From: a virus
Lineage: Duplodnaviria; Heunggongvirae; Uroviricota; Caudoviricetes
IMG/VR virus record: IMGVR_UViG_3300029703_000118
Coordinates: 1 to 9,464 of that record
Length of the DNA: 9,464 bases
Direction: 5' to 3' (one strand)
Positions 1-9,464 of this stretch are shown here, piece after piece. The stretch's first letter is position 1. The number at the start of each line of letters is the position of its first letter. A program made the position numbers and the translations under genes. The notes below the pieces were generated by a model that had not been told where the DNA came from, did not search any database, and worked only from the letters and a program-made list of their open reading frames with translations.

Positions 1-73
1 ATGTTTAATTTACACTCTTTTTATGCAATTATTCTTTCGACTATAAAAACACCACTATCTCATGTATGACCTT

Positions 74-100
74 GGGGAGCGTGCCGTCTCCCCGTTTTTT
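74..100 (+). terminator. Terminator-like hairpin A on the plus strand
   Basis: A 6-bp stem GGGGAG/CTCCCC with an 8-nt loop, then G plus six T. It follows a plus-strand reading frame that enters from the left edge and stops at TGA 67-69. Confidence 0.5.
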
Positions 101-148
101 CGCTTACAGTTTCATGACGACTTTCAGTTTCAGGAATCAGCAGTTACC

Positions 149-175
149 ATGCAATACGAAAATTCTGTATTGCAT
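149..175. promoter_or_regulatory. Perfect 9-bp inverted repeat ATGCAATAC-N9-GTATTGCAT; candidate operator or RNA hairpin
   Basis: Read directly from the sequence: the two arms are exact reverse complements separated by 9 bp (GAAAATTCT). Confidence 0.4.
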
Positions 176-243
176 CCGCGCCCTCATCTCAATATCTTTG
201 TCGCCGGATAAAAATAACTATCAACCACAAGTATCATGCTCTC

Positions 244-269
244 GGGGAGCACGCACTCCCCAGTTTTTT
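244..269 (+). terminator. Terminator-like hairpin B on the plus strand, paralogous to hairpin A
   Basis: A 6-bp stem GGGGAG/CTCCCC with a 6-nt loop, then AG plus six T. Its flanks share short blocks with hairpin A (ATAAAAA, ACTATC, GTAT upstream; CTT..ACAG downstream). Confidence 0.5.
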
Positions 270-372
270 ATCTTTGACAGGGGTGAAGGAGGCCGTTGCA
301 TCTCCTTTAATTATCATTGCCAGATTATTTCCTCGACCTGAGTATTCTTTATTTAGCCATAGCTTTGTAGCA

Positions 373-398
373 AGGGGCTGGAGCGCCCCTCTTTTTTT
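373..398 (+). terminator. Terminator-like hairpin C on the plus strand, abutting the tfa-like stop codon
   Basis: A 6-bp stem AGGGGC/GCCCCT with a 6-nt loop, then C plus seven T (392-398). On the minus strand the hairpin is not followed by a U-tract, so it is oriented to stop transcription entering from the left. Confidence 0.5.
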
Positions 399-979
399 CA
401 CCTGTCAGCCATGCCGACCTTATACGCCAGTATAGCTTCCGCATCATCCAGCGCTTCAATCTCTTTTTTCATCGTGCGCTGTCTGACATGAATTTCCAGA
501 CCTTTGGTAAACATCGCCTGCTCTGCAGCAGCACTCAGAGCAATCAGTGTTTCAGCGTCCATCGGTACGTCATTATTGTCCGCATCCGTCCAGAAAAACT
601 GCTCCGGCAGTTTCCCCGCTTTCGCTGCCGCCACCGACGGCTCAAGACGCGTCTGCGTTGACTTCCCGTAGTCCCATTTACGCCCATTGTGCTCAAACGT
701 GTAGTTCGCCGCTTCCATCGCATTACGCCAGGCGTTGATCCCGGCGGTTTTGAGTTCTCTGGCTTTTTCCGGGCTGATGGATGGCTGTACATATTCTGCA
801 ATTTCACCGGCCTCTCCTCTCAGACAAGCGGCATAAATATCCCGCCCGTATGCTTCGGTATCGCTGGCTGTTGCAGTGAAAGGAACCGCCTGCTCAATGT
901 GCTCAAACTTCACCATGCAATTGACAGCAGTGTGATCTTTATCTGCCCATTGCGGATTGCTTATTTTTTCCACATTCAT
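398..979 (-). CDS. 193-aa protein immediately downstream of the side tail fibre gene; tail-fibre assembly chaperone or tip protein by position only
   Basis: ORF 398..979 on the minus strand with an ATG at 979..977. A Shine-Dalgarno-like AGGAGA lies 5 nt upstream, and the start is 15 nt after the stf stop, consistent with co-expression. The sequence looks like a globular protein. I do not recognise similarity to lambda Tfa, so the function is inferred from position alone. Confidence 0.7.
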   Translation of the reverse strand: MNVEKISNPQWADKDHTAVNCMVKFEHIEQAVPFTATASDTEAYGRDIYAACLRGEAGEIAEYVQPSISPEKARELKTAGINAWRNAMEAANYTFEHNGRKWDYGKSTQTRLEPSVAAAKAGKLPEQFFWTDADNNDVPMDAETLIALSAAAEQAMFTKGLEIHVRQRTMKKEIEALDDAEAILAYKVGMADR

Positions 980-994
980 GTCATCTCCTGTCAG

Positions 995-2548
995 TCAGTA
1001 TGCGCGCTGGAACAGCCCGATGCCTTCATTGTCATTTGTCGACGTAATTTCATTACACACCATCCATGAGCCCGGAACTGAGGATAGTCTGCCGTCAATG
1101 CCATCGGTGTTAGCTTTCATATAGTTCCCGTTTTCGTCTTTGATTAGGGCGCATCGCTTAAGGCGTGAACCCTGTACAGTTTCTCCTGGCTGATAGGTTC
1201 TGCCGATGTCGGTTGCATACGGGATTATTGCGGCAATAATGTATGTTCCGATGCTGTAAATTTCCCCGGGTACCAGCCTTCCGGTTGGCCCTTGTGGTCC
1301 CTGTGGTCCGGGTTCACCTGTCGGGCCCTGTGGACCTGTCGGGCCCTGTCTTCCTGTTTCTCCCTGCAAACCTCGTGGCCCCGTTTTACCCGCAGGACCT
1401 GCCGGACCAACCGGCCCCGGAACACCCTGTGCCCCCGCTGGTCCCCTTTCACCTCGTGGCCCTGCCGGACCTGCCTTACCTTCCGCTCCGGCGGTACCAT
1501 CCTTTCCTGCGGGGCCTGCATCACCTTTGGGACCAGCTGCACCAGCCGGTCCCCGTGGGCCTGCGGGCCCCACTGCACCAGGTGCGCCAGGTTCCCCCCT
1601 GTCCCCCTTCGGTCCGGGGACTGCTGCCCGGGTTGCTGCCTCTTCTGCCTTCGTTTTTGCTGCCTGCACTTCTGCCATTACCGCTTTCACAGCCTTTGGG
1701 GTTGCCGCTTTTGTTTCATCATCGCTGTTGGTATCGCTGCTCAGCTGTACAACACCTTTCTGTGATGTGCTGGCATCCGGAACACTGGCGACACTGCCTG
1801 CGGGACCCGCAGGACCTGCGGGGCCGGTTTCTCCCCGAGGGCCTGCGGGACCTGCCGGACCTGTTGCGCCGGGTTCACCTTTATCCCCTTTCGGGCCGGT
1901 TTGCCCTGCCGGACCCTGTGGTCCGGGTGGTCCGGCCTCTCCACGTGGGCCGGTGTCACCTTTCGGCCCCGGCGGTCCGCCCGGGTCACCTTTATCGCCC
2001 TTCGGTCCCTGTGGACCTGTTTCTCCCCGTTCTCCCTTTGGCCCCGGCTCACCTTTTGGTCCGACCGCCCCCGTTGCCCCGGCTGGTCCCTTTGCCCCTG
2101 TGGCACCCTGTGGACCTGTGTCCCCCTTCTCGCCCGCCGGTCCCCGGGCATTCTCTGCCCGTTTCTTCGCTTCCTCTGCACTCGCCGCCGACGCTTCAGC
2201 ACGCTTCAGGATTTCCGCTGCCACCGCTTCCAGCTCTGCAAGCGCTTTCGGGTAATACTGCGCCTCATCCTGTTCCATCAGAAATTTATTCAGCGTTCCC
2301 GGCTCAGAATCCGCCTTCACCAGAATGTCACCCACATACGACGGGGCGCACCCTTCCGTGTTCAGCGTCACCCGGTACCACCCCGGCTCCACATCAAAAC
2401 TGTAACTGCCGGTTTCCTCCGGCTGCCCCTGCGCCACCGTGGTGACTATCACTGTCTCTGTGGTGCGTCGCGCTTTCAGCTCTATGGTGCATCCCGGCAC
2501 CGGCTTCCCGGTGCCGTCCTTCAGCACGCCCGATATTCTGACTGTCAT
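995..2548 (-). CDS. stf: Side tail fibre protein with collagen-like (Gly-X-Y) repeats, 517 aa
   Basis: The N-terminus [17 protein letters not shown] resembles the lambda Stf N-terminus as I recall it. Two long Gly-X-Y tracts are separated by a linker containing [26 protein letters not shown], which resembles a conserved phage-fibre motif. A GGGAG Shine-Dalgarno lies 7 nt upstream of the ATG at 2548..2546. This architecture matches the prophage-encoded collagen-like tail fibre proteins described in E. coli. Confidence 0.85.
1280..1615 (-). repeat. Collagen-like block 2 inside stf: 38 consecutive Gly-X-Y triplets (aa 312-423)
   Basis: Direct reading of the translated ORF: Gly at every third residue with Pro, Ala, Lys, Glu and Arg at X/Y. 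The DNA is a GGN-CCN triplet repeat. Confidence 0.9.
1796..2143 (-). repeat. Collagen-like block 1 inside stf: Gly-X-Y triplets (aa 136-251) with a single one-residue register break (GDPGGPPG)
   Basis: Direct reading of the translated ORF. Gly periodicity is 3 throughout, apart from one Gly-Gly step at aa 190-191. Confidence 0.9.
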
Positions 2549-2561
2549 AGATTTCTCCCAT

Positions 2562-2595
2562 AAAAAAAAGCCCGCAGCAGTGACGCCACGGGCTT
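2562..2595 (-). terminator. Candidate intrinsic terminator downstream of lom (minus strand)
   Basis: On the minus strand a GC stem (GCCCG...CGGGC, with flanking A-U pairs) is followed directly by a run of 8 U. It sits between the lom stop (2700) and the stf start (2548). Confidence 0.5.
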
Positions 2596-2699
2596 CAGGA
2601 CAGTGTAACTTTACGTTTCCTCAAACGCAGTTCATCACATGAGGCGGATGAACCTGCGAATTATAACAATGTTTGCAGAAGATAAATCGTCATATACTC

Positions 2700-3299
2700 T
2701 CAGAACCGGTATCCGGTGCCGACAATAAACGCCTCCGTACGCCAGTCACCACGTCCTGAGGCTTCATAAGCCAGGTCGACCACGATATTTTCTGTCGGGT
2801 TAATCTGCACGCCTGCACTGTATGTCAGTGCGGTATGGCTGCGGCGTCCGCTGTCCGAACGGGTCAGGTGCTCCTGCTTTTTACCCTCATCTGACGTGAG
2901 GGTCACATAATCACCGGCAAAAGACGACACCCGGGCATACGACACTCCGGCCAGCGCATAAGCGCTGAACCATTCATTCACGCGCACAGATGGCCCCGCC
3001 ATCACGCTGAACCAGCGGTTACGCACAGAATCCTCATGCCAGCGGGTATCGTTGTAGTGCGTTTTTTGCTCACCTTCAGCATTGGCATAACTGAAGGACG
3101 TAATCAGCCCCAGCGTGTCCGTAAACTCATAACGGTATTTCACGTTAATCCCGTTCAGATCATCGCTGCCTGGCATATCAGTATGGGTCTGAAGATACCC
3201 GGCGCTTAGTGTGGACTGATGCTCTGCTGCGCTCGCTGGCGTACCAGCGGCAACCAGCCAGACGACTGCGGACAGAATAACAGCACATAATTTACGCAT
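2700..3299 (-). CDS. lom: Lom-like outer-membrane beta-barrel protein (Ail/Lom/OmpX/PagC family), 199 aa, lysogenic-conversion moron
   Basis: An N-terminal signal peptide (MRKLCAVILSAVVWLVAAGTPASA) and a C-terminus ending in GYRF, typical of outer-membrane beta-barrels. Motifs GINVKYRYE, SVMAGP and DWRT...FIVG match lambda Lom as I recall it. It occupies the lambda position between J and stf. GAGG lies 5 nt upstream of the ATG at 3299..3297. Confidence 0.9.
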   Translation of the reverse strand: MRKLCAVILSAVVWLVAAGTPASAAEHQSTLSAGYLQTHTDMPGSDDLNGINVKYRYEFTDTLGLITSFSYANAEGEQKTHYNDTRWHEDSVRNRWFSVMAGPSVRVNEWFSAYALAGVSYARVSSFAGDYVTLTSDEGKKQEHLTRSDSGRRSHTALTYSAGVQINPTENIVVDLAYEASGRGDWRTEAFIVGTGYRF

Positions 3300-3320
3300 A
3301 ATTACCTCTCGCTTTTCTGC

Positions 3321-3348
3321 AATAAAAAAGGCACCATTTCTGGTGCCC
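3321..3348 (-). terminator. Candidate intrinsic terminator immediately after J (minus strand)
   Basis: On the minus strand a 6-bp stem GGCACC/GGUGCC with a 6-nt loop is followed by UUUUUUAUU. It lies 19 nt after the J stop and 22 nt before the lom start. Confidence 0.6.
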
Positions 3349-3366
3349 GTATCTGGGTTATAAAAT

Positions 3367-6300
3367 TCAGCTAATCGTGATGCCTGCAGTGGCTTTCTTC
3401 ATCACCACAACCAGCAAATCGCTGATACTTGCTGTGGGATACCAGTTATTTACCAGCCATGCTGACACCGAAAACTCCAGTGTCATGTGACCGTGACCGG
3501 CAGGCATATCAATAACGCCACTGTAAATCAGCGTATTATCCAGCGCGGTACGGTTATAAATTTCAGCACCGTTTTTCCGCACTATCAGACGGCATGAGGA
3601 GTAAATATCAGTATGCTCTCTCTCATGCTTAGCGCCACTGAATGCCACCGCCGGAATAACAATCTGTCGGTCAAACGGCTGATCGTCATAAACCCTGACG
3701 GTAATGGTCCCTGATGGCCACCGCTCCGGTGCACGGGAGTCCCGGGGGAAAGCTTTGCCCACTGTTTTAACGAGATCGCCTTCAATCTGGTTCGCGGACA
3801 GTTTTCCCAGAACCCGACAGTTCTCGTTAATCGTGACGTTGTTGAGCGTCCCGGAATTCGCATTCACGTTACCGCTGATATCAGCATTTCTTGCGGTCAG
3901 CCTGCCCTCCGGCGTCAGGGAAAACGTCGGGGGATTGCCGGACGAGGTGATACTCACCGCAAACAGCCGCTTCAGGAACACATCGTTCATGAACAACTGA
4001 TTCCCCTGCGCCACAAATAACGGCGTGGTGTTGCCGTCCTCCGGGTTAATCATCGCAATACGGTCAGCCAGCAGCAGTATGTTGCTCAGGGGCTGGCCAT
4101 CAGTATCCTCAATCCCCGCTCCAATACCGGCAACATAGGGTATGCCATTTTTTGTTTTCTGTACCTTCAGCATGTAAAGTGCAGCAAGGTCATCATTTGT
4201 GTCCTTCTGCACGCGCTGTATCTGCTGTATGGTGGCGCTCTGGTCTTCCAGCGTTTTACTGACCGTCTGCGTGATTTCATTGCGGGTTTCTGTGATGGTG
4301 GTCTGCATTTCCGCCATCTCGTCCTTCAGCTGACTGTTGTCAATCTCTGCCCACAGCGCCTCTGCCAGATGCGTTTTTCCTATCTTTTCCCGGAAAAGTT
4401 CCAGATAGCCCGCAGCATCATTGCTGGGCTGCCCTCTGGCTTCCACAAAAGCAGATTTACCCACCAGGTTGACGCTGCGCACATAAAACCAGAAATCCTT
4501 TCCGGGCTTAATGTGCGGACCGGAGACACTCCACTGACTGCCGGTCCCCAGATAACGGGCAGAGGTTTCCACCTGTGCGGCGTCTGCAATTTTTGCCTCC
4601 GAAAACCAGAACTCAAACTGCACCGTCGGGTCATACACCGCAAGACGCGGTACCGCCGTTATCTGAAAATACCCCGGCGTCAGCTCAATGGTGGCCGGTG
4701 CTGCAGGCGCATTAATCCGGAACGTGGTGGTGGCGGGTTCGCCCTGCTGGCCATAGCTGTTAATCGCCCTGACCGTCAGGGTGTATTCCCCGAGAGGCAG
4801 GCCACTGAAACGGTGCTCCGTATCGGCAGTGATGGCGGTGGTCAGCAGGCGGCTGTTCTCACCGCTTCCACTGGTCAGGCGCAGACTGAAGCGCACGCCC
4901 TTCACCACCCGCGGCGTGTCCCATTTCGCCAGCGCCAGATACTGGCTGTCAGCCGCGCTCACCTCCACCGTCAGGTGCTGTACTGCCGGTGGGATAACGC
5001 TGTTCAGGGTGCCTGACTGCGGCTCAAAGCGGGCTCCGTTATCCACAATGGCTTCTTTTTCCGGTACGTGCTGCACCGCCGTGATGGCAAAGGTGCCGTC
5101 CGTGTTTTCCCGGATGGCCACACAGCGGAACAGGCGACGGCGCAGTGACGGCAGGGAGAGTCCCCACACCCCGTATGTCTCCACACCATCAGGCAGGGTA
5201 CTGACCTGTATCCGGTCCGGCGCGGGGTGTGCGGTAATGTCCACACTCACCGGCTTACCGCTGCCGTTAATCAGGTTCACCGTCGATGTCCCCGTCTCCG
5301 GGAGTGTCACCTCACGGTCCAGCGTCAGGGTGCGGGTGGCAGCATCAATGGACAGGACACGTCCGCCGGTCATAGTCCCGGCATAGTCGTTATCACAGAT
5401 TTCAATGATGTCACCGGGTGTGTGCCGCAGCCCCTGAGACCCGAGCGTGAAATCCACCGTCTGCGTTTCCAGCAGTTCGGTCTTTATCACCCACAGTCCG
5501 GCACGGTGGGCCTGACCGCGGCTGGTACAGCCGAACGCGTCCATCTTCAGCAGGTTGCGTCCGTAGCGCAGTATGGCTTCCGGGTCTTCCACCAGTTCCG
5601 TGGAGGTCTGCCAGCCGTTCTGCGGGTCGGTGTAATTCACCTCCACCGCCGTGTGCCGGTCCTTCAGGGCACTGAAGCTGTAGCGGAATCCCACGCCGTT
5701 ATCATCCACCACATCGCTGTTGGTGTACGGCCACACCACATCCGACGGGCGGTCCTGAACAAACGTCAGCGTCTGACCGTTCCATACCGGCATACAGCGC
5801 ATCGCAGAGCAGAAATCACTGAGAACGTCCCACGCCTTACGCTGTTGTGCCAGGTACGCATTAAAGGTCATCCGCGGCTCGGTCCCCCCGAAACCATCCG
5901 GGACCGTCTGGTCGCAGTACTGCCCGATGGCATACAGCGCCCACTTGTCCACATCCGCCGCCCCCAGACGTTTTCCCATGCCGTAGCGCGGGTGAGTCAG
6001 CATGTCCCACAGGCACCAGGCCGGGTTGTTGCTGTATGCCGGTTTCAGACTGCCGTCCCAGATACCACTGTACGTGCGTTTTTCCGGGTCATAGTTTGAC
6101 GGCACCTGGATGATGCGACCGCGGATATGGTAGTTCACCGTCATCTGCTGACCACCAAACTGCTCCGCATCCACCTGCATCCCCACAATGGCCGTGTTCG
6201 GGTAGCACTGTTTCACATCGATGATTTCGGTGTATGACGACCACAGCGTTCTGTTCTGCAGCTGGTCCGTGGTGCTGTCCGCCGTCTCCCTGACCATCCG

Positions 6301-6837
6301 GATGTTAAAGGGGCGGGGAGGCAGATTATCCAGAATCACCGACGCAAGGAACTGTGAGGTGGTCTTGCCGTTAATGGTGACATCCTTTTCCGTCACCCAG
6401 TTACCGTTACGCTGTAACTGAATCAGCAGACGGACAGAGGACGGATTACGGTCACCCTTTGACGTGGTCTCCACCAGTGACTGCACCCCGAAGGTCACCC
6501 GCAGGCGGTCAATGTTCGCTGACGTAATGGTGCGTGTTACCGGTTTTGCCCTGGTCACTTCGACACCCAGTACAGTTTCAGAGCCGGAGGACTCAAAGCC
6601 TTCCGGTGGTGTCTGCTCCTGCTCCCCGGCACGCCAGACCGCGGTCACACCGTGTATCACGGGATTACCGTCCGTGTCCGTCAGCGGGGTTTTGTTCACC
6701 AGAATACTCTGCAGGCCTTTCACCGGGCCTTCTATCGGTCCCTCACCAATCGCATCAATCACGCTCATCATCTGCGTGGATTTGAGATTATCCTTCACCT
6801 CACGAGGCGTGTGTGCCTTACCGCCACCTTTACCCAC
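3367..6837 (-). CDS. J: Tail tip / host-specificity protein J (central tail fibre), about 1156 aa from a GTG start
   Basis: The ORF is homologous along its length to lambda J as I recall it (for example [63 protein letters not shown] and [18 protein letters not shown]). I place the start at the GTG at 6837..6835, which gives an N-terminus (M)[12 protein letters not shown] matching lambda J MGKGSSKGHTPRE and is preceded by a GGAGAGGGGG Shine-Dalgarno. The TTG at 6882 listed in the ORF track lies inside the upstream terminator. Confidence 0.93.
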
Positions 6838-6878
6838 TCGATCCCCCTCTCCTGTCTGATGTCTGAATTTGTTTATGC

Positions 6879-6911
6879 CCAAAAAACAACAGGCACCCCG
6901 GAGGGTGCCTG
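6879..6911 (-). terminator. Strong intrinsic terminator in the I-J spacer (minus strand), just upstream of the J start
   Basis: On the minus strand a perfect 9-bp stem (CAGGCACCC/GGGTGCCTG) with a 4-nt loop is followed by UUGUUUUUUGG. Confidence 0.7.
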
Positions 6912-6949
6912 CATCATGACGGAATAAAAATTCTGAATATCTTCACATT

Positions 6950-6977
6950 TTCACAAACTGACTGTGGCGCGTATAAT
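6950..6977 (+). promoter_or_regulatory. Candidate sigma70 promoter on the plus strand, convergent with the tail operon
   Basis: A -35 element TTCACA (6950-6955, 5 of 6 matches to TTGACA), a 16-bp spacer, and a perfect -10 TATAAT (6972-6977). The predicted start site is about 6984. Confidence 0.55.
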
Positions 6978-6983
6978 TTCGCT

Positions 6984-7081
6984 GCGTTAGTGTTTTTTCT
7001 GCCCGAGTAACAAAAACAACTCCTTAACATTAATCTTCATTTGTCTGTCCCGCAGCTCCGCGATCACTGCGGGATTTTTTT
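6984..7081 (+). ncRNA. Candidate small RNA of about 100 nt bounded by the plus-strand promoter and terminator in the I-J spacer
   Basis: The predicted start (~6984) and the terminator U-tract end (7081) define a unit with no plus-strand ORF of meaningful length. The body holds a U-rich tract and a CA-rich single-stranded stretch (AACAAAAACAAC) ahead of a terminal hairpin and poly-U, which is the general shape of Hfq-dependent sRNAs. Confidence 0.4.
7048..7081 (+). terminator. Intrinsic terminator on the plus strand
   Basis: An 8-bp stem (UCCCGCAG/CUGCGGGA) with an 11-nt loop is followed by 7 U (7075-7081). On the minus strand the same hairpin is followed by ACAGACAAA, so it terminates only plus-strand transcripts. 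Confidence 0.7.
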
Positions 7082-7086
7082 ATGTT

Positions 7087-7767
7087 TTATCCCTGTCGAC
7101 CAATAACCACGACCTTTCCGCCCCCGCCTTCATCACGGGTACTGATGTCCTGGGATATACGGCGGGAGCCAACCAGCATTTCCCCGTAAGGCACCGGCAT
7201 CGGGTTACCCTGGGCAATCATGTTGTCCAGTGAGGAAAAGTACGTGTTCTGTCTGCCGTTATCCGTTGCGCGGTAATCCGGTGTTTTTGCCTTCGGGGCC
7301 AGCATCTGGGCCACACCACCCAGAATCATGCTGGCTCCAAGTGAAAACAGCATCGTGGTGGCAGAAAAACCACCGGCTGCCAGGGCTGAACCCCATAACG
7401 CCATCGTGGCTCCGGCAGTGAAGAAAGAGCCCACGATGGCCGCCGCCCCCAGCACAATCTGCAGTCCGCCCTTTCCGGCACCGGCCAGTCGCGGCACAAT
7501 ATGGATGACCGTTCCCTCACCCAGTGGTTCGTGAAGGCGGGCATACACCGCCTCCGGTGCCGTGTCATCACCGGCAATACGTATCTGGTACCAGCCTTCG
7601 TTCATCTGACGGCGAAAGCCCGGCACCTGCAGCGACAGGGCACGGATGGCTTCCGCTGCCGTGTTCACATACAGGCTGATGCGGCGACCAAATCGTTGTA
7701 AATCCCCGTGAAGGCAGATGCGGACCAGTGGCGGTGACGCCAGACAGAATGCGTTCGTCGTTGCCAT
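7087..7767 (-). CDS. I: Tail tip assembly protein I, 226 aa
   Basis: Similarity to lambda I as I recall it (ARICL.GDLQRFGRRI, GWYQ.RIAG, IHIVPR.AGA, SLGASM.LGGVAQMLAPKA.TP, DNG.QNTYFSSLDNM.AQGN, YGEM.VGSR). ATG at 7767..7765. It overlaps the 3' end of K by 103 nt in another frame, as in lambda. Confidence 0.92.
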   Translation of the reverse strand: MATTNAFCLASPPLVRICLHGDLQRFGRRISLYVNTAAEAIRALSLQVPGFRRQMNEGWYQIRIAGDDTAPEAVYARLHEPLGEGTVIHIVPRLAGAGKGGLQIVLGAAAIVGSFFTAGATMALWGSALAAGGFSATTMLFSLGASMILGGVAQMLAPKAKTPDYRATDNGRQNTYFSSLDNMIAQGNPMPVPYGEMLVGSRRISQDISTRDEGGGGKVVVIGRQG

Positions 7768-8408
7768 TTTTCGGAATACCTCTCTCGTTTGCTCAGTTGT
7801 TCAGGAATATGGTGCAGCAGCTCGCCATCACCACAGTAAATGGCGGCATGATTCGGCACCGATGAACCAAAACAGCACAGCAGCACATCGCCCGGTTGTG
7901 CTGATGACAACGGCACCTGATACAGCCCTGTGGCCTCCAGATTATCCAGGTACAGGTTCTGGCCGTTGCGCCACCAGTCATCCTCGCGATGAAAATCCGG
8001 CATATCAATTCCCGCCAGATGATAAGCATCCCGGAACAGCGTGTAACAGTCCGTCACCCCGTGCTCAAAGCGCCGTCCCGTCAGGTGTGGCACACAGCGG
8101 AATTTGTGAATGTCACCCCGGCAGACCAGCCACCAGGGCAGTGCGCTTTTTATCTGCAGCCGCCGGTCAGCCTCGCTCAGCCAGGGCAGCCCACCGGGAT
8201 GACTGTGGACCAGTGCCACAATCTCCCCCGACATCTCTGCCCGCAGCCAGTCTTCCGGTGCGATACGAAAATACGCCTCAGGCTCTGCAGAGATATTCAC
8301 GCACGGCTGGTACTGGTTGCCCTCCGGCGTGCTTATCACGAAGCCGCACGACTCCGCAGGCGCACACCGCCGGGCATGCGCCAGAATCGCTGATTCAGTC
8401 TGTGTCAT
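7665..8408 (-). CDS. K: Tail tip assembly protein K, 247 aa, with an N-terminal JAMM/MPN+ motif and a C-terminal NlpC/P60-like Cys/His region
   Basis: I place the start at the ATG at 8408..8406, 10 nt after the L stop. The longer ORF in the track (from 8669) would overlap L by about 250 nt and is rejected. The JAMM signature HSHPGGLPWLSEAD (H-x-H-x7-S-x2-D) is intact. The NlpC/P60-like residues are Cys in DCYTL and His in NHAAIY plus LLHH. Confidence 0.9.
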   Translation of the reverse strand: MTQTESAILAHARRCAPAESCGFVISTPEGNQYQPCVNISAEPEAYFRIAPEDWLRAEMSGEIVALVHSHPGGLPWLSEADRRLQIKSALPWWLVCRGDIHKFRCVPHLTGRRFEHGVTDCYTLFRDAYHLAGIDMPDFHREDDWWRNGQNLYLDNLEATGLYQVPLSSAQPGDVLLCCFGSSVPNHAAIYCGDGELLHHIPEQLSKRERYSEKWQRRTHSVWRHRHWSASAFTGIYNDLVAASACM

Positions 8409-8418
8409 AAACCGGGAT

Positions 8419-9117
8419 TTACTGCGAAAGTTTATTAATGGAAAGGAAACCGCCAAAATTGCCGACATTCCTGCGCAGTTCACACCCGCGCATGCACTTG
8501 CTGCATCTGTCCTTACGGATATCCGTGGTGGGTTTATCGAACTCATCCGCCACAGCCCCGCCCGTGTAACCACACTCATCAGAGCGGTAGGTCCACATAC
8601 AGGTGTTCGCCAGCATGATACGACCGGGAAACAGCGCCCCGTCCGTCTCGGTCGGTGTGGCCAGCACAAACGAGGCCGTCATGGCTGTCAGCTGCGACAT
8701 CTGCTCCACCACCCAGCGGTCACTCAGCTCCTGCTCCGGGTCCGCCTCCGGATTGCCCGCAACGAAATTCACCGCATCCAGAAAACGGGCATACACCCGG
8801 CGGCGGACCACCGTGGCCCCCACCAGGCTCTGCAAATCCTCCGCCATTCCGGTGACAAGACCAAACAGATTGGACACCGTCAGCAACGGTCTGGCACTGC
8901 TGCCCTTCCCGTTCATCTCAAAGCCGCTGCCCTCAATCGGGTACGCCTGATATTGCCGCCCCTGCCAGGTGACCGGCTCCCCTTTTTCATTCAGCTCATT
9001 GCAGAAAAAATACCGCTCACCGCCCTGTACCGTCAGGTCGATTTCCCAGAGCACCACCCGCGGTGACTGCTCTGATTTAACCGACTCGTTCAGACTTTCT
9101 TCGTGAATATCCTGCAT
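8419..9117 (-). CDS. L: Tail tip protein L, 232 aa
   Basis: Same length as lambda L and similar along the protein as I recall it (VVLWEIDLT, GGERYFFCNE.NEKGEPVTWQGRQYQ.YPI, C-terminal NVGNFGGFLSINKLSQ). Its ATG at 9117..9115 overlaps the M stop (ATGA). Confidence 0.93.
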   Translation of the reverse strand: MQDIHEESLNESVKSEQSPRVVLWEIDLTVQGGERYFFCNELNEKGEPVTWQGRQYQAYPIEGSGFEMNGKGSSARPLLTVSNLFGLVTGMAEDLQSLVGATVVRRRVYARFLDAVNFVAGNPEADPEQELSDRWVVEQMSQLTAMTASFVLATPTETDGALFPGRIMLANTCMWTYRSDECGYTGGAVADEFDKPTTDIRKDRCSKCMRGCELRRNVGNFGGFLSINKLSQ

Positions 9118-9446
9118 CAGTTCACCACCTGCTTAAACTCCGCGCTGAACTCAACGCGCAACATCCCGACCCGCGCAGACCACCCGGCACAGGTCACCTT
9201 TATCTGCCGGTATGCATAGGGTGGCTTCCACAAAAATGCCTTCCAGCCACCGTGCTCTGCCAGGAACGCTTCCAGATGACGGGCCTCCTCCCGGGTCACG
9301 GAAAGCATCACCCGGTATGTTTTCAGGTCAGCATTCAGCCCTGCCGCCATACGCTGTGAGTACCCGTCACCAAAACGCACTTCACGCACCGATGGCTGCG
9401 AGTTCACCTCCATATCCGGCTTCACTTTCCAGCGAAATGTTTTCAT
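9117..9446 (-). CDS. M: Tail tip assembly protein M, 109 aa
   Basis: Same length as lambda M and similar as I recall it (MKTFRWKVKP, VRFGDGYSQR, LKTY, IKVTCA.WS.RV.MLRVEFSAEF.QVVN). Its ATG at 9446..9444 overlaps the TGA of the upstream gene. Confidence 0.93.
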   Translation of the reverse strand: MKTFRWKVKPDMEVNSQPSVREVRFGDGYSQRMAAGLNADLKTYRVMLSVTREEARHLEAFLAEHGGWKAFLWKPPYAYRQIKVTCAGWSARVGMLRVEFSAEFKQVVN

Positions 9447-9464
9447 CGCCCGCTCCCCGATAAC
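9443..9464 (-). CDS. H: 3' end (last 7 codons) of the upstream gene, expected from synteny to be the tape-measure protein H; truncated by the window edge
   Basis: A minus-strand frame reads ...LSGSGR then TGA at 9445..9443, overlapping the M ATG exactly as the lambda H/M junction does. The call rests on synteny; seven codons carry no diagnostic sequence. Confidence 0.4.

Follow-up and report, generated by a model that had tools for sequence, protein, structure and literature searches.

PasB, pathogenicity-associated sRNA B, was found by RIL-seq and northern blot in the EPEC strain E2348/69 (Pearl Mizrahi et al. 2021, PMC8550237). It is listed there as an 83-nt RNA on the minus strand of prophage PP6 (NC_011601.1, 1466343–1466261), flanked by E2348C_1436 and E2348C_1437 and detected with the northern probe AATCCCGCAGTGATCGCGGAGCT (Table S6, PMC8550237). 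The same study reported that PasB depends on Hfq for its stability and is more abundant in the non-activating growth condition. [quoted passage not shown] The RNAs EcOnc22, EcOnc23 and EcOnc24 were recovered by Hfq-CRAC from the EHEC Sakai prophages Sp15, Sp14 and Sp11, respectively (Tree et al. 2014, PMC4104026, Table S2). EcOnc22 was placed on the plus strand of Sp15 at 2902714–2902774, measured about 85 nt by northern blot and was destabilized in a Δhfq strain (PMC4104026).

Here we analysed 9,464 nucleotides of viral DNA (positions 1 to 9,464 of IMG/VR record IMGVR_UViG_3300029703_000118; hereafter, the window), which contain the tail region of a lambda-like E. coli prophage with its operon on the minus strand. 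An identical sequence is present in E. coli JE86-ST05, in which RefSeq annotates M, L, K (as a C40 peptidase), I, J, Lom, a tail fibre and a DUF4376 protein. On this annotation, the tail assembly protein gene I lies at 7087–7668 and J, the tail tip or host specificity gene, at 3367–6837 with a GTG start at 6837, both on the minus strand, leaving an I–J intergenic gap of 249 bp (6838–7086). In lambda, I occupies 14773–15444 and J occupies 15505–18903, and the gap measures 60 bp; the first-pass annotation, which was made from the letters of the window, had given about 250 bp against roughly 60 bp and was right on both figures. It had also proposed aligning the spacer with that of lambda to see whether the difference is an insertion. 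This alignment placed extra DNA at approximately 6936–7086, consisting only of a promoter, an RNA and a terminator. It is a minimal insert in the sense of the morons of Juhala et al.

Two features of the J leader bear on how the gap is measured and how it varies. A mechanical list of open reading frames starts J at a TTG at 6882 (3367–6882), which would wrongly cut the gap to about 200 bp and overlap the tail-sense hairpin described below; the RefSeq start, GTG at 6837, is preceded by GGAGAGGGGG. Directly upstream of the J Shine–Dalgarno sequence, a heptamer is repeated in tandem at 6853–6866 (plus-strand TGTCTGATGTCTGA; TCAGACA on the tail-sense strand). The window has two copies of this heptamer and some related IMG/VR loci have three or four (for example, L052 and L055), so that the 5′ untranslated region of J varies in length from locus to locus in steps of 7 nt.

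Within the insert, we found a plus-strand promoter at 6950–6977, in which a −35 element TTCACA (6950–6955) and a −10 element TATAAT (6972–6977) are separated by a 16-bp spacer. It matches the sigma-70 consensus at 11 of 12 positions in a consensus scan, which bears out its first reading as near-consensus, and no other site in the 9.4-kb window, on either strand, scores at least 11/12, where 0.09 such sites are expected per dinucleotide shuffle. A Rho-independent terminator follows 71 nt downstream of the promoter, at 7049–7081 on the plus strand (called at 7048–7081 in the first pass); the terminator scan and the fold give a 7-bp stem, CCCGCAG/CUGCGGG, formed by 7049–7055 with 7067–7073, an 11-nt loop and a run of seven T residues at 7075–7081. 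As had been claimed, there is no credible plus-strand open reading frame between the promoter and the terminator, the nearest being a 21-aa TTG frame that overlaps the terminator. The predicted primary transcript is 98 nt long (6984–7081, plus strand) and antisense to the tail operon, close to the roughly 100-nt antisense transcript suggested earlier.

The predicted 98-nt RNA folds slightly better than shuffled sequences (z = −2.1), with the terminator as its dominant element. Its 5′ variable part (6993–7020) contains a U-tract at 6993–6998 and the CA-rich stretch AACAAAAACAAC at 7009–7020. Both had been noticed from the sequence and are present, but the CA-rich stretch had been described as unpaired, and the predicted fold pairs the two with each other. 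The region that follows, UCCUUAACAUUAAUCUUCAUUUGU at 7021–7044, is unpaired in the minimum-free-energy fold and contains a CUCC motif resembling an anti-Shine–Dalgarno sequence; it is the likely seed region.

This unit of the I–J gap is a copy of pasB, an sRNA gene previously identified experimentally in pathogenic E. coli. In E2348/69, the pasB locus is likewise the I–J gap, between the end of I at 1466255 and the start of gpJ at 1466496. The published 23-nt northern probe matches 7054–7076 of the window exactly on the minus strand and therefore would detect a plus-strand RNA. From the predicted start to the U-run, the window and E2348/69 PasB are identical in 95 of 99 aligned columns (96%). 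The 83-nt EPEC RNA corresponds to 7000–7081 of the window, and its RIL-seq 3′ ends, at 1466260/1, fall at 7081/7082, in agreement with the U-run of the terminator. The predicted start at 6984, which gives the 98-nt form, lies 16 nt upstream of the position that matches the annotated 5′ end of PasB (7000). The four differences between the two RNAs comprise two substitutions and two single-base indels. Both substitutions, A in the window for C in EPEC at 7026 and A for G at 7032, lie inside the proposed seed. Position 7026 is position 27 of the 83-nt RNA; because this change falls where Zhu et al. place the difference between PasB and PasB-2, the window allele may be PasB-2 or a close variant of it. 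The feature is thus real and already known, and the first pass was correct in reading it as a self-contained sRNA gene like those of prophages in pathogenic E. coli, although it could not name the gene. An Rfam search, one of the checks it had proposed, returned no family at the gathering score or at a permissive E-value, and the identity came from the literature.

The supplementary data of the EPEC study describe how PasB behaves in a lysogen. In the Δhfq strain, its level changed relative to the wild type by log2 values of −6.8 and −2.4 in two conditions. The baseMean of PasB (482–1082) is 30- to 200-fold above that of I and J (5–15), and this abundance beside nearly silent flanking genes argues that PasB is transcribed from its own promoter in the EPEC lysogen. 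RIL-seq identified 37 distinct partners, 30 of which are coding sequences or 5′ untranslated regions and none of which is an sRNA, and PasB was the second RNA in 99–100% of its chimeras, as is characteristic of canonical Hfq sRNAs. Partners in the activating condition include bfpB, bfpI, ler, perB, ftsZ, galE and rplX, and those in the non-activating condition include espC, fabR, the 5′ untranslated regions of tolC, raiA and ydbJ, yhhX, gshA and trmJ. The Hfq-bound partners of EPEC PasB therefore span virulence mRNAs (ler, bfp, perB and espC) and core mRNAs (tolC and ftsZ). As to a shared target motif, the target-motif table of that study (Table S7, PMC8550237) does not mention PasB.

We found that the EHEC RNAs map to the same junction. 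In the current Sakai record (NC_002695.2), the I–J gaps lie at 2902691–2902930 in Sp15, 2676622–2676861 in Sp14 and 2166672–2166911 in Sp11, each within a minus-strand tail operon, and the published peak starts of EcOnc22, EcOnc23 and EcOnc24 fall 24, 22 and 23 nt beyond the current J starts, respectively, so that their relative position agrees across the three prophages. The coordinates in Table S2 of Tree et al. belong to an older version of the genome, and mapping them uncorrected onto the current record lands on the wrong feature. At Sp5, the version offset is +142: Table S2 gives the AsxR peak at 1268494–1268542, the AsxR gene is 282 bp 3′ of stx2AB (PMC4104026) and the end of stx2B is at 1268347 in the current record. 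For 2.92 Mb, we bounded the offset to between +119 and +218 by means of EcOnc42, which must fall in the part of the Sakai genome that is homologous to the sRNA candidate from EPEC with which Pearl Mizrahi et al. equated it. Shifted by +128 to +142, the EcOnc22 peak becomes 2902842–2902916, inside a PasB-like RNA predicted at 2902836–2902926. Because the offset-corrected Hfq peaks fall inside this PasB-like RNA, EcOnc22–24 are an approximately 78%-identical allele of the same gene as pasB. On this link, the homologue note for PasB is blank in Table S6 (PMC8550237), and Zhu et al. never mention EcOnc. Sakai Sp5 was also considered as a second I–J gap, for EcOnc36, and was rejected; Sp5 is short-tailed and has no I–J junction.

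Outside pasB, about 50 nt upstream of J, the terminator scan identified a GC-rich hairpin with a U-run in the tail sense (6879–6912, minus strand), which the first pass had not mentioned. The hairpin runs from 6912 to 6889 on the minus strand and the U-run continues to 6879; UGUUUUUU follows this strong GC-rich hairpin upstream of J. A hairpin with a U-rich tail is found at the homologous position in lambda (inside the 60-bp gap, a short way upstream of the J ribosome-binding site), in E2348/69 and in Sakai Sp15. It looks like an intrinsic terminator within the late operon that would need Q antitermination for read-through. The family STnc100/PasD (RF02076; STnc100 is related to PasD, Zhu et al. 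2026, bioRxiv 10.64898/2026.05.13.724894) was rejected as an identity for this region, scoring 25 bits against a gathering threshold of 47 on the minus strand at 6880–6961. This partial match (E = 0.0012 in a 351-nt search) skipped 127 model positions, and its score seems to come mostly from the minus-strand hairpin.

An exact-pattern scan of IMG/VR yielded 101 loci, and hairpin conservation within this sample is by construction because the scan was anchored on the minus-strand hairpin. The loci carry 41 distinct versions of 6913–7095; with E2348/69 included, there are 33 distinct RNAs. Of 98 related loci, 90 have a −10 element of the form xATxAT in the same place (of the 98, AATAAT in 44, TATCAT in 35 and TATAAT in 10). 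The −35 element is variable and weak in other alleles, TTCACA being confined to the window and the EPEC allele. When the 33 distinct alleles were folded singly, all had the terminator hairpin and U-run, with compensatory changes at two stem pairs and with a wholly different stem sequence in the most divergent alleles. RNAalifold on a 19-allele alignment recovered only three pairs, because the most divergent alleles are misaligned in the terminator; the alleles were then folded one by one and the pairs counted by hand. Also kept across alleles are the 5′ start GCGUUAC and the block AACUCC..UUAAUCUUCAU. The variable segments are the 5′ third of the RNA (in both sequence and length), the CA-rich stretch and the terminator loop. 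Conservation of the promoter and terminator in related loci, which had been named as a point on which the first reading could fail, therefore holds for the −10 element and the terminator.

The 99-nt RNA has a match in 1,232 of 5,426 complete E. coli genomes, with 925 matching records at 95% identity or more; among the matches listed from these genomes, none has a RefSeq feature at pasB. In a search of one genome per species, pasB was found only in E. albertii and in two probable contaminant contigs. These contigs, from Parendozoicomonas haliclonae (NZ_FWPT01000051.1, 460 bp) and Streptomyces flavalbus (NZ_JBHTEB010000006.1, 3,408 bp), carry pasB, are 83–96% identical to this E. coli prophage tail region and most likely reflect contamination of those assemblies.

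To locate the seed, we fetched ten RIL-seq target sites of EPEC PasB, picked for their narrow read windows and not at random. Eight of the ten lie at or adjoin start codons or ribosome-binding sites. Pairing was scored with a longest-helix statistic on the 64-nt body of PasB; RNAduplex with full-length PasB gave unrealistically long duplexes that used the terminator. At the ribosome-binding site of yijD, AAUGUGAAGGA forms 11 Watson–Crick pairs with PasB nucleotides 37–47. In tolC, GCAAAUGAAGA spans the start codon and pairs with nucleotides 50–60, UGAAGAUCAG upstream of ydbJ pairs with nucleotides 46–55, and UGUGAAGGA in ler pairs with nucleotides 37–45. The summed best-helix score was 87.5, compared with 74.9 ± 3.1 for dinucleotide-shuffled targets, and was reached by none of 200 shuffles. 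For six of the ten targets, the best helix has its centre in PasB nucleotides 37–60, which correspond to 7021–7044 of the window; this preference for the seed region exceeds that of shuffled sequences only weakly, as 20 of 200 shuffles reach it. The same segment is the most conserved internal block across alleles. We place the seed at 7021–7044 because this segment is predicted to be single-stranded, is conserved and is the centre of the best helices; through this seed, PasB most likely acts in trans on the start regions of mRNAs. The seed that Zhu et al. put forward independently likewise adjoins the terminator on its upstream side.

In the action that we propose, transcription would start near G6984 at the near-consensus sigma-70 promoter and end in the U-run at 7075–7081, and the shorter form seen by experiment would start near 7000. 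The single-stranded segment at 7021–7044, just upstream of the terminator, would serve as the seed and pair with the ribosome-binding sites and AUGAAGA-type start regions of the tolC, yijD, ydbJ and ler mRNAs. Such pairing would occlude these start regions, changing the translation or stability of host or virulence mRNAs. We consider it very probable that the expanded I–J gap is a pasB copy, an insert of about 150 bp comprising promoter, sRNA and terminator, that would act through the seed at 7021–7044 on host and virulence mRNAs. Because two substitutions fall inside the seed, the target set of the window allele may differ from that of EPEC PasB.

A rival reading is that PasB acts mainly in cis, where it would control J expression or the integrity of the late transcript after induction. 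The route would be convergent transcription and full complementarity to the I–J RNA, leading to an RNA duplex, to cleavage by RNase III or to interference with transcription. Consistent with such a role, PasB is perfectly antisense to the tail transcript and occupies the same position, from the I stop codon to the tail-sense hairpin, in every related locus examined. However, the part of the transcript that PasB covers is non-coding, with its end some 140 nt upstream of the J ribosome-binding site, lambda does well without the insert, and RIL-seq gave abundant trans partners and no I–J chimeras, in cultures in which the tail genes were nearly silent. A mainly cis-acting PasB is quite unlikely on this evidence. 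A broader proposal, that PasB is one allele of a wider modular family of I–J-gap sRNAs that includes EcOnc22–24 and possibly also acts in cis at induction, is tentative, and we hold it to be unlikely. If it were true, the terminator and core seed would be fixed, whereas promoter strength, the 5′ region and the seed-flanking bases would be swapped between prophages, and different lysogens would retune different host mRNAs.

The first pass had suggested another trans activity, in which the CA-rich stretch would mimic the targets of GcvB or another sRNA with a GU-rich seed, making PasB an anti-sRNA sponge as AgvB is. The stretch AACAAAAACAAC is indeed present at 7009–7020, and prophage anti-sRNAs exist in EHEC, but the partner data point elsewhere: the 37 RIL-seq partners of PasB include no sRNA, and the sole sRNA partner of GcvB is SroC. 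The GcvB target consensus CACAACA is absent from PasB, and the pairing prediction against GcvB that had been suggested as a check was negative, the PasB–GcvB duplex energy being no better than 74% of shuffles. Moreover, the CA-rich stretch is predicted to be paired with the U-tract, and in most alleles its place is taken by AAAAAUAAC or a different sequence. We found no match to the AgvB and AsxR families (RF02702/RF02703) or to their shared 42-nt 3′ region at the gathering score or at E ≤ 10, and we regard the sponge activity as very improbable. AgvB itself was first suspected as the identity of the RNA and was dropped; AgvB and AsxR sit at the PR′ moron site, not in the I–J gap. As an alternative, a small protein encoded by the gap in the tail sense (minus strand) and ending immediately before the hairpin on that strand is scarcely credible. 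Sakai Sp15 does contain an open reading frame of 39 codons on the minus strand here and the window has minus-strand frames of 26 and 38 aa, but in the window the frame is interrupted, alleles reading ACGAAG have lost the ATG, and the 3′ part is conserved as nucleotides without a codon pattern. The preferred reading remains a pasB copy whose RNA would act in trans on mRNA start regions.

Careful reading of the raw sequence thus recovered an sRNA gene that has been validated by experiment but is missing from standard annotation, and no model in Rfam 15 matches the pasB unit. To what was known, this analysis adds the link between PasB and EcOnc22–24, an allele series that splits the conserved from the variable segments, and seed–target helices at ribosome-binding sites and start codons.

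Compared with known systems, the window shares the gene order M, L, K, I, J and lom with lambda, whose I–J junction is 60 bp and lacks the promoter–sRNA–terminator insert. AgvB and AsxR resemble PasB in being short, Hfq-bound sRNAs of lambdoid prophages that have their own promoter and terminator and are inserted like a moron. Unlike PasB, they lie downstream of PR′ and Q beside stx or other moron genes; they are 51–60 nt long, have a common conserved 42-nt 3′ part and sequester GcvB or FnrS. EcOnc22–24 share with the window both the I–J gap and the antisense strand relative to the tail operon. The Sp15 allele is about 78% identical to that of the window, the EcOnc −10 element is AATAAT with a weak −35 element, and the 5′ part of these alleles is 6–7 nt shorter and lacks the CA-rich stretch. 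EPEC PasB, like the window RNA, is encoded between I and J of a lambda-like prophage, antisense to the tail operon; its promoter is one base apart from that of the window, in the spacer, and the stem, loop and U-run of its terminator are identical.
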